A DNA stretch of 11,454 nt from a virus (Duplodnaviria; Heunggongvirae; Uroviricota; Caudoviricetes). Each line of letters starts with the position of its first letter. Positions within the stretch are counted from its first letter, which is position 1. Under the pieces are notes generated by a model. That model searched no databases. It saw only the letters and a list, made by a program, of their open reading frames with translations, and was not told the DNA's origin. The DNA is taken from the IMG/VR virus record IMGVR_UViG_2585427747_000005; one strand, written 5' to 3'. This document shows, piece by piece, positions 1,314 through 11,454 of the stretch. A program made the translations under genes and the position numbers.

Positions 1314-1583
1314 GCGAAAAAGCGTACGGATTTATAAGTAGCTGATTTTTAATGTGTTACTGGTTTTTTGTACACTAGCGAATCACTCTTTAAAGAGCGA
1401 GAAAAAAGGCATGGAACAATATTTTATGCCTTTGTATTAACATGAATTTAAAAGATTTTATTCTTACTGTTTCATTTTCTGTAAATCATACATCCTCAGT
1501 ATTTGCCATTCATCACTCTAGCGGGAACAATACGACACAATAAGACACCTGATGACTCTTTAAGAAACGAAAGGGGGGCAATA

Positions 1584-1772
1584 GTGTTAAGCACTGATCG
1601 GTTTATACGTGAAAAAGAATGCGAAAAACTAACCGGCCTTAGCCGTACGTGTCGCTACCGCCTGGAAAAGGCCGGACAATTCCCATCACGTCGTAAACTT
1701 GGCGGTCGTTCCGTTGGATGGTCTTTATCCGAGGTTCTGGCCTGGAAGGATAGCTGCAAGGCAGTTCATTAA
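1584..1772 (+). CDS. alpA: AlpA-family (Xis-like) transcriptional regulator / recombination directionality factor
   Basis: GTG start at 1584 preceded by a strong Shine-Dalgarno (AAAGGGGGG, 1571-1578); HTH segment LTGLSRTCRYRLEKAGQFP and KLGGRSVGW typical of the AlpA family. The track ORF starts at a TTG at 1503, which is unlikely. Confidence 0.8.
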   Translation: MLSTDRFIREKECEKLTGLSRTCRYRLEKAGQFPSRRKLGGRSVGWSLSEVLAWKDSCKAVH

Positions 1773-1918
1773 TCACGCTGGCGGCACGCAGCCGCCACAC
1801 ATCAATCATCTGAACACAGAGCTATAACCATGAAGATTGAATATACGCCAGAACGTGGGCGGGGATTCGTTCGCCCTGGTGAAACTGAAAAACAACAAAA
1901 TTGGGGTTTTTCAGGTAT

Positions 1919-1948
1919 AAAAAAAGCGGCCCCGAAATGGAGCCGCCT
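1919..1948 (-). terminator. Rho-independent terminator for the leftward small-gene operon
   Basis: On the minus strand GGCGGCUCC-AUUUC-GGGGCCGC forms an 8-bp stem with a 5-nt loop, followed by a 7-U run. Confidence 0.6.
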
Positions 1949-2041
1949 TTCTGAACAGATAACCCGCTGCGCCGTTTGTGTGTGTGATCCCAAACATAAG
2001 CACGGGGATGATAGCCGTTATCAGGCTGGTGGGCAATGCAA

Positions 2042-2230
2042 TCAGTCTGGTTCAGTTCGTTGCCATACCTGCAATGAGCGCTTTTCCCTGTACTCTTTAA
2101 GGAATTGCTCAAGGGCAAAAGCACATGGCGCGAATCTTTCTGATTCATGCTCTATCTTTCTGCGCCGTCTTTTCCGTGCCGGTGATAATGTTTTGGTCAA
2201 TTCTTTATCGGTCATTGTGTTGTCCTGCAT
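2042..2230 (-). CDS. Small basic hypothetical protein (RKRRRRK tract)
   Basis: 62-aa ORF. The likelier start is the internal ATG at 2215, which has an AGGA Shine-Dalgarno; it lies 42 nt downstream of the RHH-like gene and upstream of the minus-strand terminator. Confidence 0.45.
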   Translation of the reverse strand: MQDNTMTDKELTKTLSPARKRRRRKIEHESERFAPCAFALEQFLKEYREKRSLQVWQRTEPD

Positions 2231-2272
2231 AGCAATGCGCCGTAATACCTTACACCACGGCGCTGATGGTGA

Positions 2273-2452
2273 TTACTCTGGTTCTTTGGCCTTGCGCCGC
2301 TGGCGATATTCAACTTCTCGTTTTAATGCCGCAGTAACAAATTGCCCCGTACTTTCGCCAGGCATTTTTACCGCCTCAACATTGTTCATAACTTCATGCG
2401 GAACCCTTGCCGCAACGGTTTGTGATTTTGCGTTTACCGCTTTTGTCGCCAT
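2273..2452 (-). CDS. Ribbon-helix-helix (Arc/CopG-like) DNA-binding protein, candidate repressor
   Basis: 59-aa ORF (MATKAVNAKSQTVAARVPHEVMNNVEAVKMPGESTGQFVTAALKREVEYRQRRKAKEPE), below the track cutoff; GAGGGG Shine-Dalgarno 8 nt before the ATG at 2452; strand-helix-helix pattern; adjacent to the operator triplet. Confidence 0.55.
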   Translation of the reverse strand: MATKAVNAKSQTVAARVPHEVMNNVEAVKMPGESTGQFVTAALKREVEYRQRRKAKEPE

Positions 2453-2502
2453 GTGGTGTACCCCTCATAAAAAACAAATGCAGTATGCAGGAAAAAAAAT
2501 AA

Positions 2503-2554
2503 GTGTTCAACACTTGACGTGTTTAACACCTGGGTTTAAATTGGTGTTCAACAC
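2503..2554. promoter_or_regulatory. Three copies of the 11-bp palindromic operator GTGTT-N-AACAC overlapping divergent promoter elements
   Basis: GTGTTCAACAC at 2503-2513, GTGTTTAACAC at 2519-2529, GTGTTCAACAC at 2544-2554; a TTGACG -35-like hexamer at 2514-2519 sits between the first two. Confidence 0.55.
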
Positions 2555-2651
2555 CTTGTTGGCGCAAGGTGCAGAAACGACGAAACCCGGCAGTGCGCTA
2601 ACACTAACCGGGCTTCTAACCACCAACGATAGCGAAAGTATCGAGGTAGCT

Positions 2652-2855
2652 ATGAGAAATCATACCACACACCCGCAAGGGCGGGACTCGCACGACCTGA
2701 ATAAATACATCTGGCGTTTTATCGCCCTGAGCACGGCACAACCGCGCGTGATTACCATCGAGGCCACCAGCGAACAGGAAGCGCGTCAGCAATCTCCGGC
2801 TGGCTGCGTGATGGTATTCGCTGCCCGTATTCGCCAGGGGTCACATCATGCGTAA
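2652..2855 (+). CDS. Icd-like / P4 Kil-region-like small protein
   Basis: 67 aa, GAGGT Shine-Dalgarno; motif YIWRF...ATSEQEARQQ...VFAARIRQG matches my recollection of the host cell division inhibitor Icd-like family. Confidence 0.55.
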   Translation: MRNHTTHPQGRDSHDLNKYIWRFIALSTAQPRVITIEATSEQEARQQSPAGCVMVFAARIRQGSHHA

Positions 2856-3141
2856 AAACCGCTTGCAAAAAATTATCACGGGGCTGTATGCTTCCCCCGT
2901 CGCCCACATGGCGACCGGGTTTGACAGCCTGAATACATCTGGCGGACAGCCGCCCACATCCGATAAGCGGTTTTTTTGTGTCCGTAAACCTACCCATACC
3001 CGCATTATGGCGGGGCGTAACGGGGGAGCCTTTGTGCTCGCTGGTTTCCAGATGACCAGTCTGTCAACCCTGTTACGTCTCGCCACCATGTTTGACAGCG
3101 TAGTAGCGAGACTCCTTAAAATTCATCTGGGAGCCTTTCAC

Positions 3142-3309
3142 ATGGCTGTATCCGCACGCCCTTATTTTGTCTGGCGCTTTATGCAGTGCCTGACAGACAG
3201 CATTGCAATATTCACCGTTACCGCTGCCACTGAGCGCGAAGCACGTGCACAGCTGCCGCACGCACATCTGATTTTTGTCGCCCGTATTCGTCAGGGGGTA
3301 GGCTTATGA
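3142..3309 (+). CDS. Icd-like paralog (second copy)
   Basis: 55 aa from the ATG at 3142 (GGAG Shine-Dalgarno); YFVWRF...ATEREARAQ...FVARIRQG parallels the first copy. A longer in-frame ORF starts at 2848 but its N-terminal 98 aa look non-protein-like. Confidence 0.5.
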   Translation: MAVSARPYFVWRFMQCLTDSIAIFTVTAATEREARAQLPHAHLIFVARIRQGVGL

Positions 3310-3539
3310 GTCAGGAAATCACACTACAACAGGCAGCAGAACGCGCCCACCAAATCGAAGTTATTTGCGCACTGGCAGAGGATTACCCTGGCATGATGAC
3401 CGACAGCGAATCAGGGGCAATCATCGGCTTACTTAAACGCCTTAGCGGTGAGGTCTGCGTATTCCTGAGCGATGAACAGGAAAGAAGAACGCTTATTTCT
3501 AACGAAAAAAAATGCGGAGGGGTACACCATGTGCAATAA
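3306..3539 (+). CDS. Hypothetical small protein
   Basis: 77-aa ORF; ATG overlaps the upstream stop (ATGA), suggesting translational coupling; no recognisable motif. Confidence 0.45.
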   Translation: MSQEITLQQAAERAHQIEVICALAEDYPGMMTDSESGAIIGLLKRLSGEVCVFLSDEQERRTLISNEKKCGGVHHVQ

Positions 3540-3750
3540 CATCCGTCCGGACGCAGCAGCCGCCGCGCTCACTACGCTGATGCACGCGCTTATCGATATT
3601 GAATGCACTGCAGAGCTTGCGCAGGGAGAAGAACAGAAAGACCGGACACAGTTCGCCCTGGAATGTATCCGATACATCGCAACGCGGTCGCTGAATGAAG
3701 CTAAAAATATTCTTGTTGCTGATTGTGAAAATGGGGGGGGTTATGCGTGA
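3529..3750 (+). CDS. Hypothetical small protein
   Basis: 73 aa from the ATG at 3529 with a GGAGGGG Shine-Dalgarno (the track ORF begins at 3472); no recognisable motif. Confidence 0.4.
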   Translation: MCNNIRPDAAAAALTTLMHALIDIECTAELAQGEEQKDRTQFALECIRYIATRSLNEAKNILVADCENGGGYA

Positions 3751-3976
3751 TGATCGTTTTAATTCCCTGAAACAGGAATTTTCCGGCGTTCCTGATGATG
3801 CGGCTGATGCGCTTTCGTCAATGCCAGAACTTATTAGAGCGGCTTTTTTCTTACTTTCCACGAGAGAATATAAATCAACGGGGCTTGATGTACTGAATAT
3901 CGCCGCCGATTATGCGGAATATGTGGCAGAGGCGCGTTATAGAAGAAAATTTCCTGAGGATGTAAGCCATGCGTGA
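3743..3976 (+). CDS. Hypothetical small acidic protein
   Basis: 77 aa from the ATG at 3743 after a G-rich Shine-Dalgarno; start embedded in ATGCGTGA overlapping the upstream stop. Confidence 0.45.
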   Translation: MRDDRFNSLKQEFSGVPDDAADALSSMPELIRAAFFLLSTREYKSTGLDVLNIAADYAEYVAEARYRRKFPEDVSHA

Positions 3977-4202
3977 TATTTACCACGAAACAATAGACCG
4001 CGCATTTCTTGCACTTTCTCACAGTGAAAACATGCTGGAAATATTGCGCATATGGCTTGAAACACTTGGCGACAATGAACGCGACAAACAAAAATCAAGA
4101 ATTGCCACGGCATTAATAACGCTTCTTGAGCCTGTAATAATGGAACTGCAAGAAATAGATCTATTGCACGACAGATATAAAGAACAGCACACCGGAGAAT
4201 AA
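3969..4202 (+). CDS. Hypothetical small protein
   Basis: 77-aa ORF; ATGCGTGA start/stop overlap with the upstream gene; helical-looking sequence. Confidence 0.5.
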   Translation: MRDIYHETIDRAFLALSHSENMLEILRIWLETLGDNERDKQKSRIATALITLLEPVIMELQEIDLLHDRYKEQHTGE

Positions 4203-4207
4203 AAATA

Positions 4208-4507
4208 ATGAAACTTAAATATTCTGGCTTAACTGCCAGTGGCAACACTCACCCTAAATTTACGCGCGGCGATATTTACCGCGACCAGTACGGCGGCACG
4301 GTAATGATTAAGGGCGTGGAAGAACGGCGCGTAACCTACCGCCGTGAAGGTTACGAATATGATTGCGTGATGCCTGTTTATCAGTTCCGGCGTGATTTTT
4401 CTCTGGTACAGACCGCGCCGCATAACGTGTCCACCAGCAACGCCAGGGCACGGGCAAACATCCAGAAGCTGAAAACCATGATTAACGGATTCAGGGGTAA
4501 AAAATGA
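4208..4507 (+). CDS. Hypothetical protein
   Basis: 99-aa ORF, GGAGA Shine-Dalgarno; stop overlaps the start of the replication gene (ATGA). Confidence 0.5.
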   Translation: MKLKYSGLTASGNTHPKFTRGDIYRDQYGGTVMIKGVEERRVTYRREGYEYDCVMPVYQFRRDFSLVQTAPHNVSTSNARARANIQKLKTMINGFRGKK

Positions 4508-6258
4508 AACTGGCACCGAACGTAAAACAGCAGTCACGCGGCATAAAACACAAAGAAACAGAAGTCATTATTTTTGCGGGTAGTGATGCCTGGTCACACG
4601 CAAAACAATGGCAGGAACATGACGCGCGTATGGCCGGAGATAATGAGCCTCCTGTGTGGCTTGGGGAGCAGCAGTTATCCGAACTGGATAAGCTGCAAAT
4701 TGTGCCGGAAGGCAGAAAATCCGTGCGCATATTCAGGGCCGGATATCTTGCGCCAGTAATGATAAAGGCGATTGGTCAGAAGCTGGCGGCGGCAGGCGTA
4801 CAGGATGCAAATTTTTACCCTGATGGTATGCACGGTCAGAAGGTGGAGAACTGGCGCGAATATCTGGCCCGTGAGCGCCAGAATCTTTCTGATGGTCTGG
4901 TCATTGAGCTTCCGGTAAAGCAAAAGGCGCAACTTTCGCAGATGGCGGACAGTGAGCGCGCGCAGCTGCTTGCCGATCGCTTTGATGGCGTTTGCGTACA
5001 TCCTGAAAGTGAAATCGTTCACGTATGGCGCGGCGGGGGATGGTGTCCGGTCAGCACAATGGAACTTAGCCGCGAAATGGTGGCGATCTATTCAGAGCAC
5101 AGGGCCACTTTCAGCAAGCGCGTAATCAATAACGCCGTGGAAGCGTTAAAAGTTATTGCCGAACCAATGGGCGAGCCGTCCGGCGATTTGTTGCCGTTCG
5201 CCAATGGTGCGCTTGACCTGAAAACGGGGGAATTTTCCCCGCACACGCCGGAGAACTGGATCACCACGCACAACGGCATTGAGTACACGCCACCAGCACC
5301 AGGGGAGAACATCCGCGATAACGCGCCAAACTTTCATAAATGGCTTGAGCACGCAGCCGGAAAAGACCCGCGCAAGATGATGCGTATATGTGCCGCGCTG
5401 TACATGATTATGGCGAACCGGTACGACTGGCAGATGTTTATTGAGGCCACCGGAGACGGCGGGAGCGGTAAAAGTACATTCACACACATAGCCAGCCTTC
5501 TGGCAGGGAAACAGAACACGGTAAGCGCTGAAATGACATCGCTTGATGATGCTGGTGGACGTGCGCAGGTTGTCGGGAGTCGTCTTATCGTCCTGGCTGA
5601 CCAGCCGAAATATACAGGCGAAGGAACGGGCATCAAGAAAATCACGGGCGGTGACCCCGTGGAAATTAACCCGAAATACGAAAAGCGTTTCACGGCGGTA
5701 ATCAGGGCGGTGGTGCTGGCGACCAACAATAACCCGATGATATTCACCGAACGGGCCGGAGGTGTGGCACGTCGTCGCGTGATTTTCCGTTTCGACAATA
5801 TCGTCAGTGAGGCCGAAAAAGACAGGGAGCTACCGGAAAAGATCGCGGCTGAAATCCCTGTCATTATCCGCCGATTGCTGGCGAACTTTACCGACCCTGA
5901 GAAGGCACGGGCTTTACTACTGGAACAGCGTGACGGTGATGAAGCTCTGGCAATAAAGCAACAGACGGATCCGGTTATTGAGTTTTGCCAGTTCCTGAAT
6001 TTTCTGGAGGAAGCGCGCGGCCTGATGATGGGGGGCGGTGGCGATTCAGTGAAGTACACGACCAGGAACAGCCTTTACCGCGTCTATCTGGCGTTTATGG
6101 CATACGCAGGCAGGAGCAAACCGCTAAACGTAAATGACTTTGGCAAGGCTATGAAGCCAGCCGCGAAAGTTTACGGACATGAATATATTACGCGGAAAGT
6201 TAAGGGAGTAACGCAGACTAACGCAATAACAACAGACGATTGCGACGCGTTTTTATAA
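4504..6258 (+). CDS. Replication initiator: P4-alpha-family primase C-terminal domain / SF3-type NTPase
   Basis: 584 aa; Walker A GDGGSGKST, Walker B-like RLIVLADQ, D5_N-like segment LPFANGALDLKTGEF; no obvious TOPRIM primase motif seen in the N-terminal third. Confidence 0.85.
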   Translation: MKLAPNVKQQSRGIKHKETEVIIFAGSDAWSHAKQWQEHDARMAGDNEPPVWLGEQQLSELDKLQIVPEGRKSVRIFRAGYLAPVMIKAIGQKLAAAGVQDANFYPDGMHGQKVENWREYLARERQNLSDGLVIELPVKQKAQLSQMADSERAQLLADRFDGVCVHPESEIVHVWRGGGWCPVSTMELSREMVAIYSEHRATFSKRVINNAVEALKVIAEPMGEPSGDLLPFANGALDLKTGEFSPHTPENWITTHNGIEYTPPAPGENIRDNAPNFHKWLEHAAGKDPRKMMRICAALYMIMANRYDWQMFIEATGDGGSGKSTFTHIASLLAGKQNTVSAEMTSLDDAGGRAQVVGSRLIVLADQPKYTGEGTGIKKITGGDPVEINPKYEKRFTAVIRAVVLATNNNPMIFTERAGGVARRRVIFRFDNIVSEAEKDRELPEKIAAEIPVIIRRLLANFTDPEKARALLLEQRDGDEALAIKQQTDPVIEFCQFLNFLEEARGLMMGGGGDSVKYTTRNSLYRVYLAFMAYAGRSKPLNVNDFGKAMKPAAKVYGHEYITRKVKGVTQTNAITTDDCDAFL

Positions 6259-6270
6259 TTTTTTGCAATG

Positions 6271-6498
6271 GCTGTCTACCCTGTCTACCTGAGTAAAGAA
6301 AAATACATTTAATTCAGTATATTAACTTAGGTAGGCAGCCTTTTTTCACTGTCTACCTACTATCTACCCTCTCTACCTGATTTTACCTGAATCAGACAGG
6401 GAGGTAGATACGGGGTAGATAGTGGATAAAAGCACTCTACCCCGCTGAAAGCCGCGCCATTACTGGCATGAGAGCCAGTAAGGTAGATAAGGTAGACA
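6271..6498. repeat. Origin of replication: iteron array (TGTCTACC and variants, both orientations)
   Basis: TGTCTACC at 6273, 6282 and 6350; ATCTACC at 6362; CTCTACC at 6371 and 6434; inverted GGTAGATA/GGTAGACA at 6403, 6414, 6482 and 6491; immediately downstream of the replication gene. Confidence 0.7.
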
Positions 6499-6546
6499 AG
6501 GGGAGGCACAACTCAAAACTTTTTAAACGAGGGGGTAAAAATAAAA

Positions 6547-11307: not shown

Positions 11308-11454
11308 TTAGTTATATATAACAGCAATAAATAATGCGAGAATAAACGGCACGATGATCTCGGCGGCAAAACGGATACCGCAGAGAATAATGACCAGCAT
11401 TCCCAACATAATGACGATTTTTAGGCCATTGAGCGTGATGATCGGCTTTGCCAT
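11308..11454 (-). pseudogene. tqsA: 5' fragment of an AI-2E family transporter gene (tqsA/ydgG-like), interrupted after about 46 codons
   Basis: Minus-strand translation [45 protein letters not shown] matches my recollection of the E. coli TqsA N-terminus, then diverges (IYN, stop at 11308-11310). Confidence 0.55.

Follow-up and report, generated by a model that had tools for sequence, protein, structure and literature searches.

A candidate RHH repressor operon nested antisense in an eta-like open frame of an EcCICFT073-type phage satellite of Escherichia coli

Background

Gram-negative PICIs mobilise genes for virulence and defence, and work is under way to engineer them as delivery vehicles. 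The window analysed here (the whole stretch of 11,454 nucleotides) is such an island, with a layout nearly identical to that of EcCICFT073, and it carries a leftward two-gene cassette that encodes a 59-aa RHH protein and a small basic protein (ORF2). What does this cassette do? The control of Gram-negative PICIs has so far been described as activator-only: AlpA is the activator, no global repressor is known, and the existence of a repressor was called "unclear" (PMC6092414). Our best explanation, which we regard as moderately probable when all its parts are taken together, is that the cassette serves a PICI of the EcCICFT073 type, a phage-satellite island of E. coli, as its leftward regulatory operon; the binding and repression by the RHH protein, the promoters and the transcripts are all predicted. 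Gram-negative PICIs are widespread, with DNA matching the cassette in 1,689 of the 5,426 complete E. coli genomes.

Results and discussion

The cassette and its terminator

A reading of this DNA from its letters alone (hereafter the sequence-only reading) had proposed a leftward two-gene cassette with its own terminator, convergent with alpA, and all three elements are found where it had placed them (Table 1). Its claim that a strong terminator follows the small ORF is borne out by folding of the minus strand (-23.7 kcal/mol, z -4.1; none of 200 shuffled sequences was equally stable), which forms an 8-bp GC-rich core stem with one G-U pair, or 14 bp counting the A-U/G-U extension, followed by U7. 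The plus strand of the same site folds weakly (-15.8 kcal/mol, z -1.8), and an A-tract upstream of the terminator makes it weakly bidirectional. A simple terminator scan did not include the site at 1919-1946 among its listed terminators. The gap between the RHH gene and ORF2 is 42-57 nt and the genes are not coupled. In sister islands, genes for Ant, BRO-N and Rha lie between alpA and the cassette.

Table 1. Features of the cassette locus and its surroundings (positions refer to the window)
Feature	Position	Strand	Details
alpA (AlpA/Vis family)	1584-1772	+	PF05930 E 1.5e-16; PGAP annotation; convergent with cassette
Eta-like long open frame	1773-2855	+	First ATG 1830 (341 aa); begins right after the in-frame alpA stop (1770-1772), ends as icd-like #1
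Intrinsic terminator of leftward operon	1919-1946	-	GC-rich stem, 5-nt loop, U7 tract 1925-1919
ORF2, 57 aa	2042-2215	-	Start ATG 2215-2213 (second Met); Shine-Dalgarno AGGA 2223-2226
ORF2, longer form, 62 aa	2042-2230	-	Alternative upstream ATG at 2230
RHH protein, YlcI/YnfO family, 59 aa	2273-2452	-	Putative allele-specific repressor; Shine-Dalgarno GAGGGG 2461-2466, minus strand
Predicted P_L	2482-2510	-	-35 TTGAAC 2510-2505, 17-nt spacer, -10 CATACT 2487-2482
Operator O1 (putative), GTGTTCAACAC	2503-2513		Palindrome; overlaps P_L -35, abuts P_R -35
Predicted P_R	2514-2542	+	-35 TTGACG, 17-nt spacer, -10 TAAATT; 9/12 matches, consensus scan
Operator O2 (putative), GTGTTTAACAC	2519-2529		Inside P_R spacer
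Operator O3 (putative), GTGTTCAACAC	2544-2554		Over predicted P_R start site
icd-like/P4 Kil-like gene #1, 67 aa	2652-2855	+	RBS GAGG 2643-2646; NF033153 E 1.9e-18; phrog_1743, phrog_6196
Second tandem eta/kil-like unit	2848-3309		Carries C4 module

The first gene encodes a YlcI/YnfO-type RHH protein

The 59-aa RHH ORF was confirmed by a homology search, in which it matched phrog_949 (E 8.6e-22) and the NCBIfam family NF041551 (YlcI/YnfO; E 2.1e-16; score 59.7 bits, cutoff 30; alignment over model positions 1-42 of 42). Judged by this score, which exceeds the curated cutoff, the protein is a member of the YlcI/YnfO family (NF041551; DUF3950), and PGAP gives the same annotation in an identical E. 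coli locus. The protein has the beta-alpha-alpha fold of ~45 residues, and its structure model matches known RHH structures, including the antitoxins TacA, ParD, CopA_SO and VapB; in the monomer model the beta-strand is not formed. Helices A and B are joined by the G-x-S/T/N turn, here G32-E33-S34, which shows no variation among 31 homologues drawn from 8 genera. Sequence-profile comparison with curated RHH families gave no significant match: the Pfam search returned no RHH family, hhalign placed the strand and helix A of P22 Arc in register but with P 0.0087 and a probability of 4.6%, and the best Foldseek hit of the model (E 5.8) was not significant. A search of PDB sequences yielded nothing meaningful, and tblastn against 50,697 phage records gave one weak match only. 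One RHH allele matches Pfam DUF3950.

The RHH protein is hypervariable between islands, in its N-terminal DNA-reading part, and in the 59-aa allele helix B is followed by only ~9 residues, which are basic. Non-homologous Arc-like RHH proteins (matching phrog_228 and HicB/Arc) are found in the same position, with palindromes of their own. Islands of Salmonella, Klebsiella, Xenorhabdus and Pectobacterium preserve the position itself: the RHH gene converges on alpA and points away from the icd-like/primase operon. In the Salmonella, Xenorhabdus and Pectobacterium islands this gene, with the same basic tail, stands alone without ORF2, and in the Klebsiella island it is paired with a gene unrelated to ORF2. 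Our literature search on YlcI, YnfO, DUF3950 and RHH repressors in PICIs found nothing relevant.

Putative operators co-vary with the RHH allele

Upstream of the RHH gene the window contains three exact or near-exact copies of an operator within 52 bp; counting both strands, there are 7 matches to it against 0.41 expected, and none of 200 shuffles reached 7. The copies lie on two predicted back-to-back promoters. P_R was found by the consensus scan and would transcribe icd-like #1 together with the replication operon that lies downstream. P_L, absent from the list of that scan, was read directly off the sequence (8/12 consensus matches); most other alleles have TATACT as its -10, followed directly by the first operator copy. 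On the P_R side, an operator copy directly follows TTGAC in nearly all alleles.

Each RHH allele is accompanied by its own 11-bp repeat of the form GTG-N5-CAC (or palindromic), present in 2-3 copies over the divergent promoters, where the copies occupy the -35, the spacer and the start site; Arc-like alleles have the palindromes GGTGGTCACC or GGTAATTACC. For 18 clusters of the RHH N-terminal domain, the best repeated 11-mer averages 2.28 copies in its own intergenic region and 0.036 in the others. A single icd-like type accompanies at least 8 distinct operator motifs, a single ORF2 sequence accompanies at least 10, and one motif occurs with two icd-like types. Because icd-like types and ORF2 each combine with many motifs, only the RHH protein tracks the operators, and we rejected the possibility that these are sites of the icd-like protein or of ORF2, neither of which co-varies with them. 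Since the RHH N-terminal domain is the only partner with which the repeats co-vary, we read the protein as a putative repressor, specific to its allele, that would bind the repeats and act on both the rightward icd-like/replication promoter and its own. Allele-specific repeated sites beside the gene indirectly favour a predicted RHH dimer whose antiparallel beta-ribbon would contact repeated DNA. The arrangement, in which a candidate repressor gene and the replication operon diverge from a region that holds the putative operators, is that of a PICI master repressor. The sequence-only reading had compared the gene pair to a repressor plus co-factor: the first half gains support from the co-variation with cognate repeats on divergent promoters, and for the co-factor half the evidence points neither way.

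Two alleles with an identical beta-strand (KSQQLNARF) have different operator cores, so operator specificity does not come from the beta-strand alone and a simple beta-strand recognition code is ruled out. A further operator-like site at the start of alpA (1584-1594, one mismatch) is probably due to chance; it encodes the AlpA N-terminus, which is conserved in islands with other RHH alleles.

The cassette lies antisense in an eta-like frame

On the plus strand, a long open frame runs antisense through the terminator, ORF2, the RHH gene and both promoters. The sequence-only reading had dismissed its 341-aa ORF as an artefact, which is correct inasmuch as no amino-acid-level constraint was found outside the last 67 codons and frame-breaking indels are present. 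Codon periodicity is absent from 1830-2041 (substitutions by codon position 27/23/29) and from 2453-2651 (40/26/39), and the only constrained part is the terminal icd-like #1 (73/52/173). What the dismissal misses is that the frame is depleted of stops and has the anatomy of P4 eta/kil. In the parts outside the minus-strand genes, stops by frame number 10/68/53, with strong depletion in the eta-like frame, and in the 200 nt left of ORF2 they number 4/41/36. The frame is open in 12 of the 20 RHH-allele clusters of E. coli; it is closed in the other 8, and also in the Salmonella, Klebsiella and Xenorhabdus islands. Over RHH and ORF2 taken by themselves, chance would suffice to keep it open (P 0.43 and 0.78, by synonymous recoding). 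The stop depletion and the 12 open clusters argue for a frame kept open by selection.

The control region of satellite P4 has the order PLL - vis - eta[kil] - seqA/CI RNA - epsilon - alpha. In both elements an AlpA/Vis-family gene lies upstream, and a long ORF begins at or inside the alpA/vis end, spans the proximal promoter (here P_R) and ends as a 65-67-aa Kil/Icd-like gene; in P4 this is a 214-codon ORF (8812-8168), which overlaps the end of vis and ends in the 65-aa Kil. The terminal genes are homologous: P4 Kil (E 2.2e-21) and both icd-like genes of the window (#1, E 1.3e-22; #2, E 2.7e-10) match phrog_1743, with direct BLASTP to P4 Kil giving E 0.08 only. Further shared features are the overlap of the stop of the long ORF with the start of the next gene by 8 nt, the C4/CI RNA with a1b1/seqA targets, and the primase operon downstream. 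The two elements differ in that P4, in the region examined, has no leftward gene, protein repressor or protein operators annotated inside eta and its immunity is RNA-only, whereas in the window the first eta-like unit holds the antisense RHH-ORF2 operon and the operator-covered promoters, and the C4 module lies in the second unit. According to the summary in PMC10111431 of the work of Forti et al. (1999), translation of P4 eta prevents Rho-dependent termination of transcription from the distal promoter. The 341-aa ORF, which is not a conserved protein and yet not a plain artefact, resembles P4 eta, a translated read-through ORF.

A possible switch

We propose that the RHH protein would bind its cognate 11-bp operators, repress P_R and with it the icd/kil-like gene, then the C4 RNA module and the primase operon, and autoregulate its own promoter P_L. 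Such repression would keep the integrated island quiet, and each allele would give its island a private "immunity" specificity. ORF2 would share the repressor's transcript and would for that reason be produced while the island is quiescent. Induction would bypass the repressor without inactivating the RHH protein: helper-triggered AlpA would activate PalpA, and transcripts would then read rightward across the cassette. The stop-free eta-like frame, if translated on these read-through transcripts, would shield them from Rho-dependent termination in the manner of P4 eta, and the rightward read-through, convergent with and antisense to the repressor operon, should shut the latter down. Activation of PalpA by helper-triggered AlpA was shown for EcCICFT073 (PMC6092414). 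In the same work an "ORF3" fusion downstream of alpA was AlpA-dependent, which implies plus-strand read-through, and AlpA overexpression alone induced EcCICFT073, so that the RHH repressor would not be the sole gate (PMC6092414).

The RHH protein may thus be the repressor thought to be missing from Gram-negative satellites. A more sweeping version, which we offer tentatively and regard as rather doubtful, holds that YlcI/YnfO RHH proteins are the master repressors of Gram-negative PICIs, forming a heteroimmune panel of alleles with private operators, and that their operon lies antisense within an eta-like ORF kept stop-free purely for translation, as part of a head-on bistable switch. In this contest, AlpA-driven, translation-protected read-through would silence the repressor operon; as long as the island stays quiescent, the repressor operon with its terminator would oppose rightward read-through; and the switch would be made of fully overlapping sense and antisense genes. 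If the RHH protein is such a repressor, its hypervariable alleles and their matching operators would constitute the missing negative arm of PICI control, would account for the coexistence of several related islands in one cell without cross-talk, and would supply small repressor/operator pairs that are orthogonal to one another. Antisense nesting in a stop-free, sequence-unconstrained ORF would be a clean natural case for translation acting purely as anti-termination, as well as one for regulation by convergent transcription.

ORF2 and the alternative explanations

ORF2 had been described as a lysine/arginine-rich small ORF of 57-62 aa behind the RHH gene, and its presence is confirmed: the homology search matched it to phrog_21027 (E 1.6e-15), and the substitutions in its conserved core of 21 aa are of the coding type. 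It is a real gene with a narrow distribution. We found 36 homologues, in E. coli/Shigella, and 58 protein variants in ~300 fetched loci; PGAP leaves ORF2 unannotated in the identical locus, and in three further E. coli islands it does annotate homologues, which it calls hypothetical proteins. A profile HMM search of 1.84 billion representatives gave 9 matches only, one of them a spurious eukaryotic repeat protein, and revealed no distant relatives hinting at function; tblastn against 50,697 phage records gave no match. In the structure model, a disordered N-terminal tail rich in Arg and Lys precedes a single amphipathic helix. Because it is absent from the Salmonella, Xenorhabdus and Pectobacterium islands and replaced by an unrelated gene in the Klebsiella slot, ORF2 would seem to be an accessory passenger, carried in a second-gene slot of variable content, and not a toxin. 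It is most likely a small adaptor or nucleic-acid-binding protein that acts on a host, helper-phage or island target, a role that is a guess.

Could ORF2 instead be a dedicated partner in the switch and no passenger at all, for instance a co-repressor on the RHH tail, an antagonist of AlpA, or an Arg-rich RNA-binder on leader hairpins? Its tight linkage to and common orientation with the repressor, in DNA matched in nearly a third of the E. coli genomes counted above, would fit this, as would the very high conservation of its core across islands with differing integrases and replicases, the Arg-rich N-terminal tail of most variants, and a 75-aa gene in the same slot of a second module that shares the motif FALExFL (P 0.001). 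We nevertheless consider such a role unlikely: the islands of other genera lack ORF2 and keep the RHH gene, operators and icd-like gene, one clade has a non-basic N-terminus, one homologue has its basic cluster at the C-terminus, and ORF2 does not co-vary with the RHH allele.

It is distinctly unlikely, in our estimate, that the RHH protein merely autoregulates a small accessory operon without control over the life cycle of the island, the operators on the P_R side being incidental to the back-to-back promoters. Autoregulation is the default behaviour of RHH proteins, and the sufficiency of AlpA for induction of EcCICFT073 (PMC6092414) agrees with it; against it, two of the three operators are in the spacer and on the start site of P_R and not of P_L, and the adjoining of TTGAC and operator recurs in nearly every allele.

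That ORF2 is not a gene, its frame being open by chance and its conservation stemming from a cis-acting site or from the eta-like ORF on the plus strand, strikes us as highly improbable. The third codon positions of both frames coincide, so periodicity alone cannot separate them, and for this reason the antisense frame is open over ORF2 in 73 of 74 variants, as expected per synonymous recoding. The discriminating substitutions over the whole ORF are balanced (44 vs 37), its C-terminal third has no periodicity (62/58/64), and PGAP skips it in the identical locus. The test separated the strands only once it was restricted to the conserved core, where substitutions by codon position are 22/17/64: there, 15 changes are silent on the minus frame only versus 4 on the plus frame only, and the mean BLOSUM of the replacements is +0.47 for the minus frame versus -0.76 for the plus frame. 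The plus frame, moreover, has no amino-acid constraint on either side of ORF2; the second Met is the conserved start, with an upstream CAGG Shine-Dalgarno motif conserved in all variants; the protein family is a mosaic in which indels have lengths divisible by three; and a PHROG family for ORF2 exists.

The least probable reading is a type II toxin-antitoxin pair, the antitoxin-first layout also raised by the sequence-only reading, with the RHH protein as antitoxin and autorepressor and ORF2 as a small basic toxin that stabilises the island: as that reading itself had noted, the second protein belongs to no recognised toxin family (no toxin or defence family matched in Pfam, NCBIfam or PADLOC, the last of which found nothing, and PDB sequences gave nothing meaningful), its modelled tail and single helix are unlike known type II toxins, the stretch after RHH helix B is too short to hold a toxin-binding domain, a single ORF2 sequence is found alongside many RHH alleles, the non-homologous Arc-like ones among them, the RHH protein lacks this partner in three genera and has another in Klebsiella, and the two genes are spaced apart and uncoupled.

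Relation to known systems

In P22 immI (Mnt/Arc, ant, sar RNA), small RHH repressors act on operators that overlap closely spaced opposed promoters, and the predicted layout of the window resembles this. The P1 immI region (c4 - icd - ant) is similar in that a C4 antisense RNA and an icd gene adjoin antirepressor/Bro genes. Unlike in P22 and P1, the RHH protein of most alleles is of the YlcI/YnfO type, the operon to be controlled comprises the icd-like and replication genes and not ant, and the element is a satellite.

With the Stl/Rpr repressors of SaPIs and other Gram-positive PICIs the locus shares a leftward repressor gene, divergent from a rightward excision/replication operon, with the control region in between (PMC6092414), and the RHH protein would fill the role called "unclear" for Gram-negative PICIs. 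However, the candidate repressor here is an RHH protein of 59 aa where theirs are large HTH proteins, it shares no transcript with int and alpA, and instead of anti-repression by a helper protein, which nothing indicates for RHH, a bypass by AlpA-driven read-through would operate.

E. coli K-12 YlcI (DLP12) and YnfO (Qin), with DUF3950, share the family NF041551 with the RHH protein of the window but are uncharacterised genes of defective lambdoid prophages in another context, and the literature searched reports no function for them. The RHH antitoxins TacA, ParD, CopA_SO and VapB are similar in the fold of the first product and in gene order; the window differs from them in having no recognisable toxin or toxin-binding extension, and its second gene is dispensable across genera. 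The locus also holds a lesson for annotation, as PGAP calls plus-strand pseudogene fragments here and usually misses ORF2.

The RHH gene and its candidate operators

The leftward cassette of the window opens with a 59-aa RHH gene, which the sequence-only reading had picked out together with a small downstream ORF and a strong minus-strand terminator; all three were recovered, both ORFs with database matches (see table). By sequence profile the product is linked only weakly to classical RHH families. The fold evidence is consistent with RHH identity: its two helices lie where expected, and the G-E-S turn is invariant among 31 homologues from eight genera; K9, S10 and R16 are invariant in the YlcI-type proteins. 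Among loci with an identical second gene (ORF2), the first gene differs widely, being one of several short YlcI-type alleles, a YlcI-type allele of ~101 aa with an inserted helical segment, or a non-homologous Arc-like RHH protein of 57-63 aa. The DNA block shared between islands (~2024 to 2312) comprises ORF2 and the last ~13 RHH codons, and the RHH N-terminal domain is swapped wholesale between islands together with the adjoining ~250 bp.

Features of the leftward cassette and of the plus-strand units around it (window coordinates)
Feature	Position	Strand	Evidence
Terminator	1919-1946	-	GC-rich hairpin then U7; -23.7 kcal/mol, z -4.1, more stable than all shuffles
ORF2	2042-2230	-	phrog_21027 E 1.6e-15
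RHH ORF, 59 aa	2273-2452	-	NCBIfam YlcI/YnfO 59.7 bits (cutoff 30), E 2.1e-16; phrog_949 E 8.6e-22
P_L (putative promoter)	-35 TTGAAC in first palindrome copy; -10 CATACT 2487-2482	-	read by eye from sequence
Candidate operators	2503-2513, 2519-2529, 2544-2554		palindrome GTGTTYAACAC
P_R (predicted promoter, sigma-70-like)	TTGACG 2514-2519, 17 nt, TAAATT 2537-2542	+	promoter scan
icd-like #1	2652-2855	+	phrog_1743
Eta/kil-like unit 1	1773-2855		
Eta/kil-like unit 2	2848-3309	+	
C4 antisense RNA and its a1/b1 target element	2886-2935 and 3003-3090	+	C4 RNA 72.6 bits, E 5.8e-13; a1/b1 46.8 bits

Three copies of a palindrome bracket the predicted P_R in the intergenic region (7 matches observed on both strands vs 0.41 expected; none of 200 shuffles reached 7). 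All other RHH alleles have the same architecture, each with a repeat of its own, such as GTGGCTGACAC, GTGCGATTCAC, GTGTAAGACAC, GTGAATACCAC or TGTGCGCACA, and GGTGGTCACC or GGTAATTACC with Arc-like alleles. For 18 allele clusters, whose representatives are only partly independent, the best repeated 11-mer occurs in 2.28 copies in its own region, a count that cannot fall below 1 because the motif was picked from that region, vs 0.036 in the others. At least eight operator motifs were found with one icd-like type, at least ten with one ORF2, and two icd-like types with one operator motif. Since adjacent genes do not follow the repeats and the RHH N-terminal domain is the only coding sequence that co-varies with them, we infer that the RHH protein binds the repeats, represses P_R and regulates its own synthesis. 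The outer GTG...CAC bases are common to YlcI-type sites; two alleles with the same beta-strand sequence differ in the central bases, so specificity is not set by the beta-strand alone.

A palindrome copy with one mismatch (GTGTTAAGCAC) at 1584-1594 overlaps the annotated GTG start of alpA; as an operator it is probably a chance match, since islands that carry other RHH alleles use this sequence, too, to encode the AlpA N-terminus. Elsewhere, the minus strand of 2579-2651 gives a full-length, sub-threshold Rfam match to SymR (33.3 bits, E 0.0035) and a predicted fold of -35.1 kcal/mol (z -4.9). From an extended -10 (TGGTATGAT, the reverse complement of 2659-2667) this RNA would begin at ~2651 and be antisense to both the RBS and the 5' leader of icd-like #1; a GC hairpin at ~2582-2616 keeps its pairing, with differing sequences, in other alleles. 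A cis-antisense RNA is one possible reading of the element, a leader structure another.

The second gene

Minus-strand genes and the 341-aa plus-strand ORF that covers them share third codon positions, so that periodicity and open frames cannot separate the strands. The frame antisense to ORF2 is open in 73 of 74 ORF2 variants, as expected by chance under synonymous recoding (P about 0.6-0.8). The comparison set of about 300 loci, with 58 ORF2 protein variants, was collected via ORF2 homology and thus over-represents E. coli islands having ORF2. The family is mosaic, with a variable, usually Arg/Lys-rich N-terminus, a near-invariant 21-aa core (EHESERFAPCAF[AVI]LE[QK]FLKEY) and interchangeable C-terminal tails. 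Core substitutions fall 22/17/64 by codon position; 15 changes are silent only on the minus frame vs 4 only on the plus frame, and mean BLOSUM scores show replacements to be conservative when read on the minus frame (+0.47) and not on the plus frame (-0.76). Because these substitutions favour the minus frame and no coding signature of the plus frame was found on either side of ORF2, ORF2 is, judged by its pattern of change, a real minus-strand gene. Its distribution is narrow: 36 homologues in E. coli/Shigella, and only nine matches when 1.84 billion representative proteins were searched with its profile. Nearly all homologues start at the second Met (ATG 2215-2213 in the window), giving 57 aa; AGGA precedes this ATG, and a CAGG motif is kept in every variant. 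The AlphaFold model predicts a disordered tail (residues 1-28) followed by one confident helix. PGAP leaves ORF2 unannotated here, yet annotates homologues in other islands.

In islands of Salmonella, Klebsiella, Xenorhabdus and Pectobacterium, RHH homologues have the same placement: they converge on alpA on one side, and on the other they diverge from an icd-like gene, behind which come DUF4222 and primase genes. No second ORF comparable to ORF2 follows RHH in the Salmonella, Xenorhabdus and Pectobacterium islands, which have non-coding sequence instead (with a terminator-like hairpin in Xenorhabdus), and the Klebsiella island L304 carries in this slot an unrelated 84-aa gene (4192-4446), without family match, that overlaps the RHH stop codon (GTGATG). 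The island of E. coli O111:H8 strain 8234 (L091) has two regulatory modules in tandem at 2932-4740, the first with an ORF2-like gene, an Arc-like RHH gene, palindromes and a hairpin, the second with a 75-aa ORF, a long YlcI-type RHH gene, operators and an icd-like gene; the 75-aa ORF, in the second-gene slot, shares with ORF2 only an FALExFL motif, and both modules are spanned by a single open plus-strand frame of 602 codons. Because RHH is kept across genera and the second gene is absent or unrelated, RHH is, on this comparison of islands, the conserved core and the second position a variable slot. The sequence-only reading had left a repressor and an antitoxin-first toxin-antitoxin layout side by side. 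The covariation of operators with RHH argues for the repressor; a toxin-antitoxin pair is unlikely because of the variable second slot, the very short RHH tail and the lack of a toxin-family match for ORF2, on which our homology searches agree with the earlier reading. In the sister islands L086, L087, L090 and L308, the interval from alpA to the cassette holds antA/AntB, BRO-N and Rha genes on the plus strand, and in CFT073 a BRO-N-like remnant persists at the N-terminal end of a 428-codon open frame.

The plus-strand frame

The 341-aa ORF had been taken for an artefact, which holds for its protein upstream of the last 67 codons and apparently not for its frame. The last 67 codons of the ORF are icd-like #1, with substitutions of 73/52/173 by codon position. 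Upstream, no periodicity was found (27/23/29 in 1830-2041, 40/26/39 in 2453-2651), and indels of 1, 2, 10 and 28 nt occur outside icd-like #1; by these signs that part is not a conserved protein. The frame itself, however, appears to be open far above chance (moderate confidence). The alpA stop (TAA, 1770-1772) is in frame with it, and, as no stop occurs before the ATG at 1830, alpA and the open frame are contiguous; in 12 of 20 RHH-allele clusters it stays open through the entire cassette to the icd-like stop. Where minus-strand genes are absent, stop triplets by frame number 10/68/53 (intergenic) and 4/41/36 (left flank), counts that are not fully independent since some sequence is homologous between clusters. 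In islands of Salmonella, Klebsiella and Xenorhabdus the frame does not stay open, so the feature is lineage-specific.

In P4, vis (an AlpA homologue) overlaps at its end with a 214-codon ORF that runs across an internal promoter, seqA and the CI/C4 RNA and terminates as the 65-aa Kil, as the window's long frame does as icd-like #1; phrog_1743 is common to P4 Kil and both icd-like genes of the window. According to PMC10111431, citing Forti et al., translating P4 eta protects transcripts of the distal promoter against Rho-dependent termination. With moderate confidence, this analogy suggests a P4 eta/kil anatomy. Two units of this kind follow one another in the window: the first contains the antisense RHH-ORF2 operon, and the long ORF of the second overlaps the first ORF's stop by 8 nt, ends in a second icd-like domain and contains a C4 antisense RNA and its a1/b1 target element. 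This RNA immunity module, of the same type as P4 CI and P1 immI, lies in tandem with the putatively RHH-controlled unit. PGAP annotates 1830-2855 and the comparison loci L001 and L003 inconsistently: on the plus strand it calls pseudogene fragments ('Icd-like' and 'BRO-N') as well as an Icd-like CDS of 134 aa whose start precedes its own promoter. In PHROG the Icd/Kil family bears the label 'transcriptional repressor', which seems to go back to an old P4 'cI' ORF annotation.

A model of control

Beyond the covariation of operators and RHH, the steps of the following model are ones that we infer. In the integrated state, P_L would produce RHH and ORF2, and RHH on the three operators would keep P_R down and restrain its own synthesis, with the downstream C4 RNA module as a second lock. 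A helper phage triggers alpA (PMC6092414). AlpA-activated transcripts would go rightward from PalpA, past the weak face of the bidirectional terminator (its site is weak on the plus strand), and cross the cassette during translation of the eta-like frame, reaching the icd-like, C4 and replication genes without need of P_R. The AlpA dependence of an EcCICFT073 reporter fused to 'ORF3' downstream of alpA (PMC6092414) is consistent with such read-through. The same transcripts would be antisense to the repressor operon and collide with it.

RHH repressors with operator repeats are of a well-known kind; new here are this RHH member with its panel of alleles, its position in the control of phage-inducible chromosomal islands (PICIs) and the way it is nested within an eta-like frame. 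AlpA has been described as an activator, and the global repressor of Gram-negative PICIs as unclear (PMC6092414); a 'Bro zone' that holds eta-like genes together with immunity RNAs has also been reported (PMC10111431). The literature searched, beyond which other work may exist, is silent on the leftward RHH gene, on its operators and on ORF2, and yielded nothing relevant on YlcI, YnfO, DUF3950 or RHH with PICIs.

The island and its distribution

The 11.4-kb window is an E. coli PICI integrated at tqsA, with the gene order of EcCICFT073 (int, alpA, cassette region, icd-like genes, DUF4222, primase, ssb, capsid-like and decoration genes). Its region 1400-3400 is 99.9% identical to islands of many E. 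coli chromosomes, and DNA matching 1900-2470 is present in 1,689 of 5,426 complete E. coli genomes, in up to six copies per genome. The N-terminus of TqsA (AI-2 transporter) is encoded at the right edge (11308-11454, minus strand), and tqsA of the matching chromosome consists of two pseudogene fragments split by the island. Between primase and the next gene (6272-6500) lie several direct and inverted copies of CTGTCTACC-type iterons, with a 39-nt imperfect inverted repeat among them and spurious Rfam miRNA matches on both strands; this region is probably the island's replication origin.
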